Shown here: positions 25,037 to 53,747 of the stretch, in pieces
Position numbering within the stretch: the stretch's first letter is position 1
Layout: the number at the start of each line of letters is the position of its first letter
Assembly: GCA_038064855.1 (NCBI GenBank)
Contig: JBBTSE010000007.1
Location: forward strand, 18,079-82,078
DNA length: 64,000 nt
From: Patescibacteria group bacterium
Lineage (GTDB): Bacteria > Patescibacteriota > Minisyncoccia > Ryanbacterales > GWA2-47-10b
Direction of reading: 5' to 3'
Translations under genes and position numbers: made by a program
The notes under the pieces: generated by a model
Told to the model about the DNA's origin: nothing
Database searches by the model: none
What the model saw: the letters and a program-made list of their open reading frames with translations, nothing else

Positions 25037-26266
25037 CTAGGGGCGCTCGGGTACTAGATTGACTTCTATTACTTCAGGAGATTTGCCGATGGTCAGCTGG
25101 ATGTTTGGCGGGGAGAGTGAGATGACTGAAAAGGTCAGAGGCCGTTTGACCATATTGTCATCGATGACTAGTTTTCGTTTGCCGGGAGCAAACCCGATTG
25201 CGTCAACCAATACTTCGAGTGATGCAGGGTCAAGTTGGTCAAACGCGCGTCCGCGCGATTCGAGTGTGATCGTGATCGTTTTGGGGTTTGAGTTTTCTAC
25301 CACCAGCGTTTCGCTCAGATTGCGATAGGTGATGGGTACAACAAAATCACGCCTAATCGTACCCGTTTGGTACACCAAGAAAAACCAAAGAACCAGAGAG
25401 ATCGCGAGTGCGCCCACTTTTTCTTTCGTATTTCTGCGTACGATATTGTGCCAAATGGGTGAGGCCTCGCGCGGAAATTTTACACGGAAAAAATCTCGCA
25501 TTCTATCTTCTACTTTGCCGATGTCATCAAAGGTTTCGAGCTTACCGTTTTGCGCGATTGATATCTGCCCGCGTTCTTCCGATACGATGAGTGCGAGCGC
25601 GTCAGAGCGTTCGGCGATACCCAGGCCCGCTGCATGTCGCGTGCCAAATTTGCCTATTTGATCGAAATCATGCGAGAGCGGCAGGTGCGTGCCCAGTATG
25701 GCGATACGATTGTGTCTGATGATGACGGCACCATCATGTCCGGGTGAGGTCGGATCAAAAATACTCTCGAGTAGTTCTTGTGAGACGATGCCGTCAACCA
25801 CACGCCCACCTTCAACATGCCGGTCGATATTTTCCGCGCCAGCGATGATGACGAGTGCGCCAATCTTGCGATACGCAAGGTTAGTCGCGGCCTGCAACAA
25901 GCTGTTGATGAGTGGCGAGACTTCCATAGCTTCGTCGCGCTGTTCGCGGCGCGTGCCAAGGAGTGCGAGAAATTCAAAAAACCTACGCAGTTCATCCTGA
26001 AAGATTACTACGAGCACTACGATGAATGCGCCAAAGAATGCGCGGAGTATGAGCGAGGTTAGATAGAGATTGAATACTTGCGAGAAGGCATAAATACCGA
26101 CTACGATCGCGATACCCGCAAATACCGAGTTTGATCGCGTGCGCCGAAAGAGCATGAGTCCCGCGTACATGATGACGGTGACCATGAGTACATCAAAAAC
26201 ATCGGTGAAATATAATTCACGCGCGAGCTTTGAGAAGGGTAAAATCACCGCAAGTACCTCTGGCAT
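25037..26266 (-). CDS. cdaA: diadenylate cyclase CdaA fused to a C-terminal YbbR(CdaR)-like domain
   Basis: N-terminal TMs. DAC motifs DGAVII and GTRHAAG. A further TM then about 150 aa YbbR-like beta-rich domain. Confidence 0.8.
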   Translation of the reverse strand: MPEVLAVILPFSKLARELYFTDVFDVLMVTVIMYAGLMLFRRTRSNSVFAGIAIVVGIYAFSQVFNLYLTSLILRAFFGAFIVVLVVIFQDELRRFFEFLALLGTRREQRDEAMEVSPLINSLLQAATNLAYRKIGALVIIAGAENIDRHVEGGRVVDGIVSQELLESIFDPTSPGHDGAVIIRHNRIAILGTHLPLSHDFDQIGKFGTRHAAGLGIAERSDALALIVSEERGQISIAQNGKLETFDDIGKVEDRMRDFFRVKFPREASPIWHNIVRRNTKEKVGALAISLVLWFFLVYQTGTIRRDFVVPITYRNLSETLVVENSNPKTITITLESRGRAFDQLDPASLEVLVDAIGFAPGKRKLVIDDNMVKRPLTFSVISLSPPNIQLTIGKSPEVIEVNLVPERP

Positions 26267-28719: not shown

Positions 28720-28858
28720 GTGAGTCGCGCTGTGCGCGACGATCAGGGTGCGAGGCCGATGGTGAGCGGGTACGCGAGGGGTTCGGAGAACGGGAGAGCC
28801 ACTTCGGAGATCTGAAGCGTATCTTGGAAGGTGTTTGAGTAGCTTCTACACCCCGCGC

Positions 28859-28990
28859 TAGTAAGACTGGAAACGGCAGTCCGCGTTGTCGGCGAGGAAG
28901 CCGATGAGGAAGGCGAGTAGGATCGCCGTGTGGTTGAGCATCGCCCAGATGTCCATCTTGCCGGTCGGTCGCTTTGCGTTCGAGTTCATG
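28859..28990 (-). CDS. small membrane protein, 43 aa (MNSNAKRPTGKMDIWAMLNHTAILLAFLIGFLADNADCRFQSY)
   Basis: SD GGAAAGGA 9 nt upstream of ATG. Third gene of the TA operon. Below the ORF-track size cutoff. Confidence 0.4.
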
Positions 28991-29087
28991 ATCTCTATCC
29001 TTTCCTTTGTCAGGAGAGCTCTTCGCTCTCGTTGTTGAAGATCAAGTTCGATATATTAGTGCCATACAAACGCCTGTTTGTCTATAT

Positions 29088-29351
29088 TTATCGTTTTCGG
29101 TAGGTGGTAGAAGCACGTCGCTCGATTGCGGTAATATCGACAAGACAGTCTTTCGTATAGAGGTCAAAAAGAATACGCCAAGCGCCAACCCTGCGCCGAT
29201 AGCTTGTCTCTAATCCTTTGAGCTTTATCGTATCACCAGCGAGCGGATCCGCATACATGTCTCGGATCGCATGTTCCATATGCTCGCGCTCTTTTTGTGG
29301 AGCTTTAGCGATATTTTTTGCCGCTCTTTTGCGAAGCGAGATATTCCACAT
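29088..29351 (-). CDS. type II toxin, RelE/ParE family
   Basis: LKGLETSYRRRVGAWRILFDLYTKDCLVDITAIERR matches the RelE core (yRlRvGdYRiiY...v.il.ig.R). Confidence 0.7.
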   Translation of the reverse strand: MWNISLRKRAAKNIAKAPQKEREHMEHAIRDMYADPLAGDTIKLKGLETSYRRRVGAWRILFDLYTKDCLVDITAIERRASTTYRKR

Positions 29352-29619
29352 GAGCAAAGAAGTCATCAATAGTCATGGACTCTGATGCGCGGCCTTTTTT
29401 GATCGCCTGCAATTCGGTAGATGTTGGCGTGCGGGTAGAGATAGGGCGCAATGGAATAGTTGACGCTTTACCAGATTCCGCAAGTATAAGCTCTTCGAGA
29501 TATGAAGAGCGGCTTCGCTTCCATACTTTTGCGCGTTCTGTGACAAGGCGGCTCATCGCTGGTTTAAGCGCGAAGCTGGTAGGTCTCCGTTTTTCGGAAG
29601 TTTCTTTTATTTTAGGCAT
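29305..29619 (-). CDS. type II antitoxin (ribbon-helix-helix-like N-terminus)
   Basis: Immediately upstream of and overlapping the toxin. RRPTSFALKPAMSRLVTERAKVW. Confidence 0.55.
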   Translation of the reverse strand: MPKIKETSEKRRPTSFALKPAMSRLVTERAKVWKRSRSSYLEELILAESGKASTIPLRPISTRTPTSTELQAIKKGRASESMTIDDFFAHVEYLASQKSGKKYR

Positions 29620-29675
29620 ATATACTAATTCCTAGTGCAAAGTTAGTGTATCATATATCTTATTGTGCTGTCTAT

Positions 29676-29715
29676 ATAAAAAATCCCCCCGAGCACTTGC
29701 TAGTGCTGCGGGGGT
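29676..29715 (-). terminator. rho-independent terminator ending the lexA-divergent small-protein operon
   Basis: CCCCCCGAGCACT-tgct-AGTGCTGCGGGGG. TTTTTT on the minus strand. Confidence 0.65.
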
Positions 29716-29861
29716 TTGGTGCGCCCGAGGCGCTCTTCGCGTTCTTTGTACTCTTGGTCTGCCAAGACTTCGAGGTCTTTGGCGGCTTGTTTGATGCGTC
29801 GGCCAAGGCCAACGGCGAGGAGTGCCATTACGGTGCCGCCTAGGATGATCTTCACGATCAT
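29700..29861 (-). CDS. micro-protein C, 53 aa single-TM (MIVKIILGGTVMALLAVGLGRRIKQAAKDLEVLADQEYKEREERLGRTKPPQH)
   Basis: SD GGCGGAG. ATG overlaps the stop of micro-protein B (TGATG). GC-rich. Confidence 0.5.
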   Translation of the reverse strand: MIVKIILGGTVMALLAVGLGRRIKQAAKDLEVLADQEYKEREERLGRTKPPQH

Positions 29862-29974
29862 CAGTCTACTCCGCCAGAGCGCTTGCGATCTTGTCTATTT
29901 GAAAGAAGCGCGCCCACGAGCAGTAGCACCAGCGCCACCGCGACGACGACACCAGCCCACATTGCCACGGTCAT
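29861..29974 (-). CDS. micro-protein B, 37 aa single-TM (MTVAMWAGVVVAVALVLLLVGALLSNRQDRKRSGGVD)
   Basis: SD AAGGAGGAG. ATG overlaps the stop of A (TGATG). Confidence 0.5.
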   Translation of the reverse strand: MTVAMWAGVVVAVALVLLLVGALLSNRQDRKRSGGVD

Positions 29975-30099
29975 CACTCCTCCTTGTTGTACTCCCAGAT
30001 CTCTTCGTTTGATTGTTCGATGGCGTTGGCTACGAAGTAGCCGAGGCCAAACAGTGACGCACCACAGACCGCAACGAATCCAAGAACTTGCAACAACAC
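29974..30099 (-). CDS. micro-protein A, 41 aa single-TM ((V)LLQVLGFVAVCGASLFGLGYFVANAIEQSNEEIWEYNKEE)
   Basis: GTG start 7 nt after SD GGAGG. Follows the 112-aa gene after a 36-nt gap. Confidence 0.45.
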   Translation of the reverse strand: MLLQVLGFVAVCGASLFGLGYFVANAIEQSNEEIWEYNKEE

Positions 30100-30135
30100 G
30101 ATACTTCCTCCAAGGTTCTGAGTTCAGAAAATATC

Positions 30136-30474
30136 TTACCTGTTTTTTACTCTTTTGTCAATATAAAAAATGACCCCGCGGATGTGTCTCCGTAGGGTCT
30201 GGATGCTGGGCGTCTCGCGCGTAGGGCGCACGAGCGCGGGTGCGTTTGATACGCGGTAGAGCGTCATCGAGATCATCACCGCCAGCAAGATAAGTAGCGC
30301 TATCACCACCCACAGCATGCGGTTGTTGCTAGTCTGCGCTTTGGCGATCTTTGCCAGCGCGCTTTGTCGCCGCTCACTGATGGGTATGACGCGTCGCGTA
30401 TGTGTCTCGGGTACGCCGTAGGTGCGGTTGGGGTCGCGTCGCTCTGGATCAAGTCTAATTAGTTTCGCAGACAT
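30136..30474 (-). CDS. single-TM Arg-rich membrane protein divergent from lexA; candidate SOS cell-division inhibitor analog
   Basis: SD GGAGG 5 nt before ATG. Basic N-terminal 60 aa, one TM, short C-tail. Topology matches ChiZ/DivS-type proteins. Confidence 0.55.
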   Translation of the reverse strand: MSAKLIRLDPERRDPNRTYGVPETHTRRVIPISERRQSALAKIAKAQTSNNRMLWVVIALLILLAVMISMTLYRVSNAPALVRPTRETPSIQTLRRHIRGVIFYIDKRVKNR

Positions 30475-30565
30475 GGCCACCTCCGTTTTCACCAAATCAT
30501 TTTTTGCTTATTTTGTAAAGATATTTTCGTTGTCCACAGCTTTTTGGCGCCAAGCACTTGTGTGG

Positions 30566-30579
30566 TGAACGAGCGTTCA
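30566..30579. promoter_or_regulatory. LexA operator (Cheo-box type TGAAC-N4-GTTCA)
   Basis: tGAACgagcGTTCa sits 15 nt upstream of the lexA start, in the divergent intergenic region. Confidence 0.65.
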
Positions 30580-30593
30580 CCTATGATATATGC

Positions 30594-31163
30594 ATGAGCA
30601 TCGAGCAATACAAATCAAAAATCATGAGTTTTTATGAGGGCAATCGGCGCATGCCGAGCTACGGCGAGATCGCGACCCTCCTCGGGTTCAAATCAAAAAA
30701 CGCCGCATCAAAAGTGATTGATAAATTGATTGATATGGGTGTGCTCGACAAAGACTCGCAAGGCCGCTTGGTGCCAACTCGCATGCTTGGCGAAGTACGC
30801 ATGCTCGGTGTGGTAGAGGCCGGTATTCCATCGCTCGCCGAAGAAGCCGCCGAGATGATCAGCATCGATCAGCTTTTGATTAGAAATAGAGATCGCACCT
30901 ATGTACTGACCGTAAAAGGCGATTCGATGATTGATGCGGGTATACGCGATGGTGATCTGGTGGTAGCCGAGCATGGCAAGCAAGCAAAGGAAGGGGATAT
31001 CGTGATAGCGGAGATTGATGGCGGGTGGACTATGAAATATTTACGAAAGAAAAACGGCACTACCTATCTCGAACCTGCCAATAGAAATTTTAAACCAATA
31101 TTTGCAGAACAGTCACTCAACATAGGCGCGGTCGTCACCGGCATTATCAGAAAATATCGTTAA
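30594..31163 (+). CDS. lexA: LexA repressor
   Basis: N-terminal wHTH, Ala-Gly cleavage region VEAG, S24 Ser motif KGDSM and Lys in MKYLRKK. Confidence 0.9.
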   Translation: MSIEQYKSKIMSFYEGNRRMPSYGEIATLLGFKSKNAASKVIDKLIDMGVLDKDSQGRLVPTRMLGEVRMLGVVEAGIPSLAEEAAEMISIDQLLIRNRDRTYVLTVKGDSMIDAGIRDGDLVVAEHGKQAKEGDIVIAEIDGGWTMKYLRKKNGTTYLEPANRNFKPIFAEQSLNIGAVVTGIIRKYR

Positions 31164-31170
31164 CAATCAT

Positions 31171-31368
31171 ATGAGCAAAACACAACTTCACAAAAGCATC
31201 GTACACGAGATAGGCCGGGTCAATGACCGCATTGATATCAAGATTTTGCGTGGCAAGTCATACCAGAGAGAAGCACAGCGTCACCGTATGCTCGTCACGC
31301 AGCTTGGGCGTCTTGAGAGGGGCGGCATTCGCTCGGGTTGGTTTTCTTCGCTGATCTCGCTACACTAG
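31171..31368 (+). CDS. small hypothetical protein, 65 aa, between lexA and bcp
   Basis: Tight operon spacing. No family recognised. Confidence 0.35.
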   Translation: MSKTQLHKSIVHEIGRVNDRIDIKILRGKSYQREAQRHRMLVTQLGRLERGGIRSGWFSSLISLH

Positions 31369-31373
31369 AGATC

Positions 31374-31844
31374 ATGGCACATACGATTAGAGAAGGATCA
31401 AAAGCACCAGTATTTAATTTGCCCGACCAATCAGGCGTCAATCACTCACTCAAAGAATATGCAGGCAGGTGGTTGCTTATTTATTTTTATCCGAAAGACA
31501 ATACCCCGGGATGCACCGTTGAGGCCTGTGCTATTCGTGACAACGCTACTGATTTCAAAAAATCAAAGATAGCGATAGTGGGCGTTTCTACTGACTCGAT
31601 TACCTCACACGAAAAATTTGCCAAAAAGTTTCAATTGCCATTTCCACTGTTGGCTGATGAAGACAAAAAGATGGTAGAGGCCTACGGCGTGTGGGGTGAA
31701 AAAAAGTTTATGGGCCGTACCTATATGGGCACGCGCCGCATGTCGTTTCTCATAAATCCCGAAGGCAAAATCGCTAAGATATATAGCGAGGTCAAACCCA
31801 AAGAGCACGCCGAGCAGGTGCTTGCTGATCATAAATCAATCTGA
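31374..31844 (+). CDS. bcp: thiol peroxidase Bcp (peroxiredoxin)
   Basis: FYPKDNTPGCTVEAC. Confidence 0.85.
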   Translation: MAHTIREGSKAPVFNLPDQSGVNHSLKEYAGRWLLIYFYPKDNTPGCTVEACAIRDNATDFKKSKIAIVGVSTDSITSHEKFAKKFQLPFPLLADEDKKMVEAYGVWGEKKFMGRTYMGTRRMSFLINPEGKIAKIYSEVKPKEHAEQVLADHKSI

Positions 31845-32635
31845 TGGCCGTCAAACGCAGATCAAATATTTACGATCCCGCATCCGCAGCGCCTTTTCGA
31901 TTTTCGCGCTCAAAGATCGAAAATTATATGCGTTGCCAGCGCTGTTCGTATCTTGACCGTCGCTTGGGTGTCAGTGAGCCTGACGGGTATCCATTTAACC
32001 TCAACAGCGCGGTAGATCATTTACTCAAAAAAGAATTTGATGTGCATCGCGCCAAGGGAAGCGCGCACCCACTCATGGAGTCATACGGTGTTGATGCTAT
32101 ACCATTTGACCATCCAGAGATGGGCCGGTGGCGCGAAAACTTTGTGGGTGTGCAATACCACCACCCAGCGACCAATTTTATCATCACGGGTGCAGTTGAT
32201 GATATTTGGGTTAATCCCAAAGGTGAGCTCCATGTCGTTGATTACAAAGCTACGAGCAAAGAGGGTGAAGTGACGCTTGATGCTGACTGGCAAGATGGTT
32301 ACAAGCGGCAGATGGAAATCTACCAGTGGCTCCTGCGCCGCGTGGGTTTTAAAGTTTCTGATACGGGCTATTTTGTCTACGCCAACGGCAAGCGTGATCG
32401 TGCCGCGTTTGATGCCAAGCTTGAGTTTGATGTAAAGATTATCCCGTATACGGGTGATGATTCATGGCTCGAGCGCACCATCAAAGAGATTCATAAAACG
32501 CTCTCGAGTGATGTTTTGCCCGCGTCAGGTGTCGGCTGCCAATATTGTCTGTATCGTGCAGAGGCAGAGCGCGCCCTCAAACCGCTTGGCAAAAAACCCC
32601 GCGTCAAAAAACAAAACTCGCTTTTTGGCCCGTGA
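31844..32635 (+). CDS. PD-(D/E)xK nuclease, Cas4/RecB-like with Cys cluster (no CRISPR context)
   Basis: CQRCSY near the N-terminus. VDDIWVNPKGELHVVDYKAT (D..D/ExK). QMEIYQWLL (QxxxY). CQYCLY at the C-terminus. Confidence 0.7.
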   Translation: MAVKRRSNIYDPASAAPFRFSRSKIENYMRCQRCSYLDRRLGVSEPDGYPFNLNSAVDHLLKKEFDVHRAKGSAHPLMESYGVDAIPFDHPEMGRWRENFVGVQYHHPATNFIITGAVDDIWVNPKGELHVVDYKATSKEGEVTLDADWQDGYKRQMEIYQWLLRRVGFKVSDTGYFVYANGKRDRAAFDAKLEFDVKIIPYTGDDSWLERTIKEIHKTLSSDVLPASGVGCQYCLYRAEAERALKPLGKKPRVKKQNSLFGP

Positions 32636-32653
32636 TTTTCTATACTAGTCTCT

Positions 32654-33322
32654 ATGGAAAACGAACAAACACAACCTCAAAATCAAAACACACCGGAACA
32701 AGGTTCTACCAAAAAAGATCAGCGTGCCGCAGAGCGCGCCGCGCGTGATGCCGTAGCGCTACGCCGCGTACAGATGCGCAAGGTCAAAAAGATTGGCTTT
32801 GGGGTCATTGTTATTTTACTTGTCGTCGGTGGTGGATATTTTGTCTATCAATCAATGCCAGAGGAGCGTCAGCTTGGTACCGATTACTCACGCACTATCG
32901 AAGACGGTGGGCAAGACCACACCAAAGAGGGCGAGAAGACTACCACTTGGAAATCAAACCCACCCGTATCAGGTCCACATTGGCCTGACCCCCAGCGCGA
33001 TGGTATCTATGACAAAGAATTACCAGAGGAGGGCGTGGTGCACTCACTCGAGCATGGTCGTATTTGGATTTCATACAAGCCAAGTATTCCTGATGCCACA
33101 AAAGAAGCGCTCAAAGAGCTTGCTCGTAAAAACACCTATATGGTAGTCTCGGTGCGTGCCGCAAATGAAACCGATGTAGCTTTGGCGGCATGGAATCATC
33201 TTGATTCGTTTAATCTCAACGCCGATGGCAGTTTTGACACTGTACGCGTACAAGATTTTATTGATCGGTATCGTGATAAGGGCCCTGAAAAAGTGCCATT
33301 CATGACGGGCAAGGAATACTAA
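32654..33322 (+). CDS. DUF3105 family membrane protein
   Basis: TM then HSLEHGRIWISY signature. Confidence 0.65.
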   Translation: MENEQTQPQNQNTPEQGSTKKDQRAAERAARDAVALRRVQMRKVKKIGFGVIVILLVVGGGYFVYQSMPEERQLGTDYSRTIEDGGQDHTKEGEKTTTWKSNPPVSGPHWPDPQRDGIYDKELPEEGVVHSLEHGRIWISYKPSIPDATKEALKELARKNTYMVVSVRAANETDVALAAWNHLDSFNLNADGSFDTVRVQDFIDRYRDKGPEKVPFMTGKEY

Positions 33323-33840
33323 TGAAAAAAATATTACTCGCACTCATGCTCGCCCTTCCACTAGTAGCGGGCGCGCATGGTGGTGAGCAACGCGTAGTTG
33401 ATGGTACATACATTGTCAGTATGTCGCGCGCGCCGTTTACACCACGCATGGGCGTGCCTACCAAATTGTTGATCTCAATATCTGATATTGCGTCAGGCAA
33501 TGTATCCGATAAAGACGCGATCATCAATCTGCGTGTAGCACGGCTTGCAAGTCCGGGCGACGAGCCGCAGTTTATTTTTGAAGAAAAAAACATCAAAGCC
33601 GAGCGCTCGACGCTTGGGTACTCGTATACCTTTCGTGAGGTAGGATTCCATGAGATCTATATCGATTTTGCGTTTGTGGATAGTCCTACGAAAGTCATGA
33701 GCGCATCAGATTATTTGCTCGATGTGCAGCCAGCACAAGAGGCAGGTGGCGATAAGTCTTTTGCGCTATGGGGTTTTGGCGGGTTGTTTCTGGGCGCGAT
33801 ATTCACAAAGATAGTGCTTGCACGCAAGGGCGAAATATAG
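33322..33840 (+). CDS. hypothetical secreted protein with C-terminal TM anchor
   Basis: Signal peptide MKKILLALMLALPLVAGA. C-terminal LWGFGGLFLGAIF. Confidence 0.5.
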   Translation: MKKILLALMLALPLVAGAHGGEQRVVDGTYIVSMSRAPFTPRMGVPTKLLISISDIASGNVSDKDAIINLRVARLASPGDEPQFIFEEKNIKAERSTLGYSYTFREVGFHEIYIDFAFVDSPTKVMSASDYLLDVQPAQEAGGDKSFALWGFGGLFLGAIFTKIVLARKGEI

Positions 33841-52873: not shown

Positions 52874-53281
52874 ATGGGTAACAAATATATCATTTTTCTT
52901 TTATTTGGAGCGCTTTTGATTGGTAGCGGCATTGTCTACGAAAAGTATTACCGTCCGAAAGATGTTGGAGCTGTCGCGTGGGATGGTGTGACGGTACTTG
53001 AGCGCAATATGATATCACTCGCAGACAAATGGCGGTTTGAGCCCAACACGCTTGAGACTAAACGCGGAGCCAAGGTGATTTTGCATATCTATAATCAAGA
53101 TATCTATGATCATGGCATCGGCATTGATAACTTCGCCGTCAATGAACGCCTTTTCCCCAAGAGTACGACAACCGTGACATTTATTGCTTCAGAAAAAGGG
53201 GAGTTTCAATTTTATTGCTCGGTCGCTTGTGGCGATGGTCATTATGACCAAATAGGCAAGCTCATCGTCCACGAGGAGTAG
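52874..53281 (+). CDS. membrane-anchored cupredoxin-fold protein with CuA-like FYCSVACGDGHYDQ motif
   Basis: TM anchor. H...C...C..H..(M/Q) spacing like cytochrome oxidase subunit II CuA. Confidence 0.55.
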   Translation: MGNKYIIFLLFGALLIGSGIVYEKYYRPKDVGAVAWDGVTVLERNMISLADKWRFEPNTLETKRGAKVILHIYNQDIYDHGIGIDNFAVNERLFPKSTTTVTFIASEKGEFQFYCSVACGDGHYDQIGKLIVHEE

Positions 53282-53747
53282 GACGATCGTTACCCAACAG
53301 AAATACCGCAAAGCCAGCGGCGGCAAGCCCCACATCACGGTAGAGATCAGGAGTCAGTTTAAGTCCTTTAAAGTTTACATACGCTACAAAAATAGTGGTT
53401 ATCATACCGCCCGCAAGAAAGCCAGCAAGACGCACCTGAATACCGGTGATGAGCGCGAGCGCTATGAGTGCTTCTAAAATACCTGTATAAAAATTGAGAG
53501 GCCGTGAGAGCTCACGCCCTATGCCAAAGAGTTGTTCGATCTCGGCGGCTCCTTGCCCTGCGCTTGCTGGTGTAAGTTTATGAATCGCAAAAAGTATAAA
53601 AACAACGGCAAGCCCAAGCCGTAGAATGATGGGTGCAAGCCATGAGAGTTTTCTACCAATATTGTTAAACCGTTCCATAAGAGTAAGTATATATGGAAAA
53701 TCACTGTATATCGTGTGGATAAGATATGCATAGCTTGTGGAGTGCAC
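53262..53747 (-). CDS. DoxX family membrane protein
   Basis: LRLGLAVVFILFAIHKL and four TMs. Confidence 0.7.
   Translation of the reverse strand: MHSTSYAYLIHTIYSDFPYILTLMERFNNIGRKLSWLAPIILRLGLAVVFILFAIHKLTPASAGQGAAEIEQLFGIGRELSRPLNFYTGILEALIALALITGIQVRLAGFLAGGMITTIFVAYVNFKGLKLTPDLYRDVGLAAAGFAVFLLGNDRPTPRGR

Follow-up and report, generated by a model that had tools for sequence, protein, structure and literature searches.

The locus described here raises the question of whether a small membrane-protein gene lying back to back with lexA in a patescibacterial genome belongs to the SOS response. The window, by which we mean the whole 64-kb stretch analysed, comes from a 322-kb parent contig of a Patescibacteria metagenome-assembled genome; it holds lexA (30594-31163, plus strand), a palindrome immediately upstream and, on the minus strand beyond it, a gene for a 112-aa single-pass membrane protein (30136-30474; NCBI hypothetical AAB417_02385) followed by three micro-protein genes. 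A first-pass annotation had combined these into an SOS division-inhibitor module; its observation was largely real, and its interpretation, plausible in form, is weakly supported. We propose that the palindrome is the auto-operator of lexA and that the adjoining minus-strand genes form a separate, accessory island of two transcription units (TU1 and TU2), a reading that we favour with a confidence slightly above even. To our knowledge, the Patescibacteria (candidate phyla radiation, CPR) are uncultured, and we know of no cell-cycle checkpoint described in them. An SOS-induced division inhibitor among them would, if true, give a first handle on how an epibiont stalls its division after DNA damage, and the 112-aa gene is a weak candidate for such a role, its position being its only link to SOS.

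The comparison draws on 46 Paceibacteria-type lexA loci (L005-L050; Taylor-, Zambryski-, Kaiser-, Adlerbacteria and others), obtained by a LexA-based scan of a genome collection, and on seven contigs of close syntenic relatives belonging to three lineages (L087; L088-L090; L091-L093). The lexA gene encodes 189 aa with a helix-turn-helix and an S24 peptidase domain (113.5 bits against TIGR00498, cutoff 110.95; PF00717 at 3.7e-25) and, like known LexA proteins, the product carries an Ala-Gly cleavage site (Ala76-Gly77) and a Ser/Lys dyad (Ser111/Lys148). Upstream lies the 18-bp operator GGTGAACGAGCGTTCACC (30564-30581), a 7+4+7 palindrome GGTGAAC-GAGC-GTTCACC. Its core GAAC-N4-GTTC occupies 30567-30578, one base inside the limits of 30566-30579 given by the first-pass annotation, which had correctly reported its presence. 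The operator fills the entire 18-nt spacer of the lexA core promoter (30558-30587, plus strand), between a -35 TTGTGT (30558-30563) and a -10 TATGAT (30582-30587), in the order TTGTGT-GGTGAACGAGCGTTCACC-TATGAT-ATATGC-ATG. The ATG of lexA stands only 6 nt past the -10 and no Shine-Dalgarno sequence precedes it, which suggests that the lexA mRNA is leaderless.

The bare 12-mer GAAC-N4-GTTC was found once in the 64 kb against 0.9 expected, which is within chance, and the box is counted as real because 42 of the 46 orthologous promoters have the same box in the same place. In these promoters a TGAAC-N4-GTTCA box (or an AGAAC/GTAC variant) lies between a TTGACx -35 and a TATACT or TATAAT -10, with the first ATG 6-9 nt after the -10, and all seven contigs of close relatives retain the lexA promoter cassette of the window whatever genes lie upstream of it, island or none. 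The palindrome is lexA's own autoregulatory operator, and one of an already known kind, with LexA binding predicted from the known mechanism of the family. Autoregulation through the Gram-positive-type SOS box (GAAC-N4-GTTC) likewise relies on a palindromic operator in the lexA promoter; the apparent differences are that the operator here makes up the whole -35/-10 spacer, that the promoter is of a predicted leaderless type and that a phased DnaA-box-like 9-mer lies upstream. A LexA motif of the GAAC-N4-GTTC type has reportedly been described for Patescibacteria already. We hypothesise that this promoter starts transcription at or beside the lexA ATG, that LexA sitting on an operator that fills the spacer would exclude RNA polymerase, and that RecA-stimulated self-cleavage at Ala76-Gly77 would release it; the 65-bp promoter cassette (DnaA-box-like 9-mer, -35, operator and -10), common to all relatives, would be ancestral. 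Since the box lies within the lexA core promoter and is unchanged in relatives that have no island, it is no specific evidence about the 112-aa gene. A search of the window revealed no convincing second LexA box, the best other sites having 2-3 mismatches and a 2-mismatch site at 26205 lying inside cdaA; recA was not found in the window by tblastn with an E. coli RecA query, and Pfam identified no classical SOS gene among 20 further large open reading frames (ORFs) of the window.

The operator is not uniform among the Paceibacteria. In some LexA promoters (listed are L026, L037, L038, L049 and L056), AGAAC-N4-GTTCT or GTAC-N4-GTAC replaces GTGAAC-N4-GTTCAC, which suggests operator diversification within the class. 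In L030 (6435-8409, minus strand), a second lexA paralogue and then a Y-family polymerase stand behind TTGACA-TTAGAACAAACGTTCTAC-TATACT.

The substitution pattern of the 112-aa ORF identifies it as a real gene on which purifying selection acts. Its orthologues share its start codon, and codons 2-86 compared between the window and its relative L001 give a rate of nonsynonymous substitution (dN) of 0.30 and a rate of synonymous substitution (dS) of 1.09 (dN/dS ~0.27). For lexA in the same pair dN is 0.011 and dS 0.78, and at the protein level the 112-aa protein is estimated to change about 27 times faster than lexA. The anatomy reported by the first-pass annotation is borne out by the sequence, with GGAGG 6 nt before the ATG, a basic N-terminal half (12 K/R against 5 D/E), one transmembrane (TM) segment at residues 54-72 (mean Kyte-Doolittle hydropathy 2.84) and a short tail of about 40 aa. 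The AlphaFold2 model, confident only at the TM helix, has residues 1-30 disordered and a helix at 32-76, with a predicted local distance difference test score of about 90 over the TM segment and of 66 overall. The best-conserved part of the family is the N-terminal AK-I--D--RRDP-RTYG-P--H (RRDPNRTYGxP), on the predicted cytoplasmic side. No relative was found in Pfam, NCBIfam, PHROG or PDB, and no LysM domain (PF01476); the sub-threshold matches to SecE (19 bits, cutoff 154) and MacP (15 bits, cutoff 45) are compositional. A prophage lysis or holin cassette was considered and is unsupported, the PHROGs and the viral contig scan being empty. The end of the gene behaves differently from the rest, its last ~25 codons being near-invariant DNA with a third-position identity of 0.80-0.88 against 0.50-0.69 upstream, and with a dS of 0.28 in codons 87-111 against 1.09 in codons 2-86. 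This low dS points to a DNA-level constraint from the terminator and promoter described below, which bears on the last ~21-25 codons of the tail.

The distribution of the gene is narrow. A word-index search retrieved two relatives at 65-68% identity, a profile search of 1.84 billion protein representatives added one further relative at 42% identity (P0004), and metagenome and viral scans yielded no others, so that the family consists of the window protein and P0002, P0003 and P0004 only, in four lineages. The relatives are all on short contigs with the same layout, and where the contigs reach far enough (L001/L002 and L085) lexA and an identical operator adjoin the island. In the relatives, a conserved TM ORF of 37-38 aa separates the operator from the 112-aa gene; it is lost in the window. 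A homologue stands beside lexA in none of the 46 Paceibacteria loci, and among the upstream neighbours listed for these loci (ORFs of at least 45 aa) there is no divergent single-TM mini-protein; these neighbours are unrelated genes in both orientations.

The close relatives are more instructive still, for the window and the seven contigs have in common the order cdaA-pepA-[variable]-lexA-p65-bcp-PD-(D/E)XK-DUF3105. Four of the contigs (L087 and L091-L093) have no island in the same cdaA-pepA-...-lexA-p65-bcp synteny. In the remaining three (L088-L090), all that is left of the 112-aa gene is 5 codons joined to a hairpin remnant, and the promoter and genes of the micro-proteins are intact; a cassette of DUF397 and a 152-aa ORF without Pfam match (4480-5178 in L088, plus strand, and its equivalents in L089 and L090) is placed exactly between the terminator U-tract and the -35, and its insertion accompanies the deletion of the 112-aa gene and the 38-aa ORF upstream of it. 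The slot between pepA and lexA differs in each close relative, being empty, or holding an MGMT-like gene, or the DUF397 cassette, or, in the window, a GDSL lipase, a secreted protein and the mini-proteins. Similarity to the island-free relatives ends at 30528-30529, just past the TTGTCCACA box, leaving only 54 bp of the island in front of the ATG of the 112-aa gene. Absent or deleted in syntenic sister lineages, the 112-aa gene is by this comparison rare, accessory, dispensable and fast-evolving. The first-pass annotation had invoked the pairing of lexA with a small membrane protein as a conserved arrangement, which fails in this group: it is confined to four lineages, lost in sister lineages and absent from the other Paceibacteria loci. 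We propose that the minus-strand genes, which encode single-pass membrane mini-proteins, constitute an accessory island that is distinct from the lexA cassette, abuts it and is specific to the lineage. A foreign origin was considered from base composition, which presents no clear anomaly.

The island would itself be divided in two. An internal intrinsic terminator is predicted on the minus strand at 30165-30199 (hairpin 30172-30199, U6 tract 30165-30170), within codons ~92-104 of the 112-aa gene, with a folding energy of -17.5 kcal/mol (z -5.4), and the hairpin is present in all four lineages (window, L001, L003 and L085); the inner stem in L085 differs from the others, with one compensatory pair. 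It is followed by a predicted micro-protein promoter, TTGACA-17-TAAGAT (30161-30133, minus strand), which matches the sigma-70 consensus at 10 of 12 positions and is kept in L001, L003, L085 and L088. The 112-aa gene ends on the TAA of this -10, which serves as its stop codon; in L085 the TGA of the -35 has that role. The stretch 30133-30206 (minus strand) is used twice, as the final ~25 codons of the 112-aa gene and as terminator hairpin and U-tract together with the -35, spacer and -10 from which the next unit would be transcribed; with the terminator inside a translated region, read-through could depend on translation. Rfam gave no match at E<=1 over 29000-31500, so that the conserved terminator-promoter block is not accounted for by any known RNA element.

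The three micro-ORFs reported by the first-pass annotation were found again on the minus strand, each with a hydrophobic segment predicted as a single TM helix. The first, p41 (29974-30099), has a conserved tail SNEEIWEY, and its orthologues suggest a TTG start at 30093; p38 (29861-29977) is absent in L001/L002 and longer in L003; p53 (29700-29861; NCBI AAB417_02380) has a charged helical tail ending in KPPQH. Homologues of p41 and p53 exist in the relatives, those of p53 being confined to the same loci as the 112-aa family. The strong terminator postulated at the end of the operon is likewise there (29678-29714, minus strand; hairpin 29686-29714, U6 tract 29678-29683), at -22.6 kcal/mol (z -5.1); it overlaps the last codons of p53 and is kept in relatives. 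The idea of a single four-gene operon, by contrast, does not hold, since the internal terminator and the 10/12 promoter split it and the micro-protein genes survive where the 112-aa gene is dead; with their own promoter and terminator, and given their persistence in L088-L090, the micro-protein genes would form a unit of their own. We propose that TU1 consists of the 112-aa gene, preceded in the relatives by the 37-38-aa TM ORF, and ends at the terminator within its own last codons, and that TU2 consists of two to four micro-protein genes, depending on the lineage, behind a near-consensus promoter and before a terminator of its own. TU2 is probably expressed independently of LexA.

Two further features of TU2 deserve mention. 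The conserved TTCTGAACTCAGAACC in the 5' untranslated region of the micro-protein unit was considered as a second LexA site and rejected, as it contains one half-site only and has not been retained in L085 or L088. Inside p41 there is also a perfect palindrome, GGCTAC-GAA-GTAGCC (30028-30042), which belongs to a stretch of 27 nt in which the window, L001 and L003 agree at every codon position; the palindrome is not kept in L085.

As regards control of the 112-aa gene by LexA, two candidate promoters present themselves. The lexA -10 TATGATA gives TATCAT on the minus strand (30583-30588), shifted by 1 nt relative to the lexA -10, with -7T and -11A reciprocally paired and a T at -18 (30576) that would provide an A as the start; reverse transcription would thus begin at about 30576, within the operator, and be repressible by LexA. 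Bidirectional promoters with a symmetric -10 have starts 18 bp apart, and reverse transcription from them is common (Warman et al. 2021; PMC10268837). The geometry at lexA is similarly symmetric, here as a prediction from sequence, but the -35 that would serve the reverse strand is a poor one, TTGTAT, spaced by 19 nt and lying within lexA codons. The alternative -10 would be borne by the island, in the conserved block AATGATTTGGT at 30491-30501 on the minus strand (TATGATTTGGT in L001 and L085). This block, [T/A]ATGATTTGGT, is the only conserved element of the island leader and is without a good -35; in L088, whose 112-aa gene is dead, it has changed to ATGCCTTGG. Such a TATGAT-like -10 would lie about 80 nt from the operator, which would then be about 76-91 nt upstream of the start and too far off for direct repression by LexA. 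We regard direct control of the 112-aa gene by LexA as possible, at somewhat less than an even chance. A GTGGACA sequence was rejected as the -35 of the 112-aa gene, as it is the DnaA-box-like element of the lexA cassette and is present in island-free relatives.

The reading of the palindrome as an auto-operator beside a separate accessory island has to be weighed against several points. Covariation support for the internal hairpin is weak, with one compensatory pair and 131 of 500 shuffles as good, because only four lineages have the island. Closely trailing ribosomes may cause read-through of the internal terminator, which would couple TU2 to TU1; the start points of both units and the efficiency of this terminator are predictions, and both promoter candidates of TU1 have poor -35 elements. 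The position and orientation of TU1 at lexA are moreover constant in the island contigs that reach lexA (window, L001/L002 and L085), a constancy that an SOS-linked gene would also show. According to one rival reading, the neighbourhood is a coincidence: the island would have inserted at the lexA promoter, would use its own promoters only and would have no part in the damage response, its products serving the envelope or host contact, as those of variable regions in Patescibacteria typically do. Each close relative fills the hot spot between pepA and lexA in its own way, and the island-specific TATGAT-like block upstream of TU1, mutated where TU1 is dead, would place the start of the unit at a distance from the LexA box; yet no -35 can be recognised for this island-borne promoter, TU1 keeps one orientation toward the lexA promoter throughout, and reverse transcription from symmetric -10 elements is common (PMC10268837). 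We consider a coincidence of this kind possible but somewhat doubtful.

The model of the first-pass annotation makes the minus-strand genes a LexA-repressed four-gene operon in which the 112-aa protein is an analogue of YneA, ChiZ, SosA or DivS that halts septation, with the micro-proteins as helpers. YneA of B. subtilis, ChiZ/Rv2719c of M. tuberculosis, DivS of C. glutamicum and SosA of S. aureus are SOS division inhibitors encoded divergently from lexA, a class defined by synteny and topology and not by sequence, whose C-terminal extracellular part usually carries a LysM domain, absent in DivS and SosA (PMC6851548). The layout of the 112-aa gene does resemble theirs, for it is divergent from lexA, small and poorly conserved in sequence, encodes a real single-pass membrane protein and evolves fast as such inhibitors do; the basic, probably disordered cytoplasmic N-terminus recalls ChiZ, and the symmetric -10 would put a reverse start inside the operator. 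The resemblance to ChiZ or YneA does not extend to the sequence itself, as Pfam, NCBIfam and PDB disclose neither LysM nor any similarity to a known inhibitor. The extracytoplasmic part is very short, and its last ~21 residues amount to read-through of regulatory DNA, partly encoded by the terminator and promoter; the conserved motif is cytoplasmic, unlike that of YneA and SosA; and the gene is not kept at its position across the wider group, being dispensable, restricted to four lineages and without a divergent single-TM counterpart among the neighbours listed for the 46 Paceibacteria loci. The model is further at odds with an internal terminator and independent promoter that divide the operon and with micro-protein genes that persist where the 112-aa gene is deleted, and we judge it improbable; the role of division inhibitor for the 112-aa protein, taken on its own and drawn by analogy, seems to us similarly improbable. 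At best, the protein would be a new, lineage-restricted member of the class of lexA-adjacent membrane proteins, and if its gene is induced, the likeliest mode of action would be that of a membrane-anchored effector acting via its conserved cytoplasmic N-terminal motif. TisB and DinQ are LexA-regulated small membrane toxins, and a further possibility is that the 112-aa gene, together with the 38-aa ORF in the relatives, encodes a damage-induced protein under LexA control that is not an inhibitor of division, either membrane-perturbing or dormancy-type in the manner of TisB and DinQ, or an envelope-remodelling factor. It would share the geometry of a reverse start within the operator, and the whole island is composed of short single-TM proteins with charged tails and turns over its gene content rapidly. 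This proposal nevertheless meets a protein of 112 aa with a conserved soluble N-terminal motif, unlike the type I toxins of 20-30 aa, an Rfam search of 29000-31500 that was empty, a lack of any antisense RNA or toxin-antitoxin signature, and a control by LexA that is itself a prediction; we hold it to be improbable too.

What the locus offers beyond the 112-aa gene is more general and better supported, namely a class-wide, compact lexA promoter, predicted to be leaderless, with the operator in its spacer, a phased DnaA-box-like element and the small protein p65 as constant partner. In the window, p65 is an uncharacterised 65-aa protein (31171-31368, plus strand) encoded in the same predicted operon as lexA. 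Its family, with members of 60-70 aa, has the motif LNxxIDxKIIxGxxYxxEAxRHKxL and a short aromatic or hydrophobic tail, with no match in Pfam or PDB. Homologues adjoin lexA in 29 of the 46 Paceibacteria loci, just upstream of it in 28, and in most of the loci with the box the first cistron is a p65 homologue and not lexA; in L005, L008, L014, L025, L029 and L032, for instance, 6-7 nt separate the -10 of the LexA-box promoter from the p65 ATG, as would be expected of a first cistron without a leader. Because p65 accompanies lexA throughout the class and lies inside the LexA-box operon, it is a stronger candidate than the 112-aa gene for a conserved SOS effector, and would be the first choice in a search for such effectors in Patescibacteria. 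Downstream of the lexA promoter, the genes at 30594-33840 (plus strand) are lexA, p65, a Bcp/AhpC-type peroxiredoxin, a PD-(D/E)XK (Cas4-like) nuclease, DUF3105 and one more ORF, each separated from the next by 0-18 nt, which suggests one long operon behind a LexA-controlled promoter. The order lexA-p65-bcp-PD-(D/E)XK-DUF3105 is kept in the close relatives.

The other companion of the promoter is the DnaA-box-like TTGTCCACA (30530-30538, plus strand), which lies 19 nt upstream of the lexA -35, matches TTATCCACA at 8 of 9 positions and marks the point at which similarity to island-free relatives stops. With at most one mismatch and at most 60 nt upstream of the operator, TTATCCACA occurs in 35 of 42 Paceibacteria promoters (19 of them perfect), compared with 1.5% of control windows. 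All but one of the 35 copies (34) share one orientation, and their distances fall into groups of 6-7, 11-16 and 23-25 nt, which differ by about one helical turn. In E. coli, uvrB and recN are SOS promoters co-regulated by DnaA and LexA, as far as the account of Wurihan et al. 2018 given in PMC8203912 goes. They likewise appear in that account as promoters with a DnaA-box consensus 9-mer beside a LexA operator; the difference is that the pair is found here at lexA itself, conserved and helically phased across a patescibacterial class, with DnaA binding putative. Our search of a literature library found no report of a DnaA box, or of DnaA/LexA co-regulation, at lexA. We hypothesise, as an idea that we deem unlikely though worth stating, that the 119-bp intergenic region is a dual-input switch in which the putative DnaA box and the LexA operator would couple the status of the replication initiator and DNA damage in the control of lexA and, via the symmetric -10, would also control the 112-aa CPR-specific membrane effector (RRDPNRTYGxP), possibly acting on division. 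The only other TTRTCCACA in the window is at 53714-53722 (minus strand), 22 nt upstream of a TATACT -10, after which a 7-nt gap leads to an in-frame ATG inside a DoxX-family ORF (53262-53747); this would be a promoter of the leaderless type.

On the far side of the island, a weak ParE-like ORF and an upstream partner ORF (29088-29369 and 29305-29619, minus strand) are possibly a toxin-antitoxin pair. They sit between the terminator of the micro-protein unit and a 43-aa remnant (28858-28989, minus strand), and this remnant corresponds to a secreted-protein gene that encodes 182 aa in L001.

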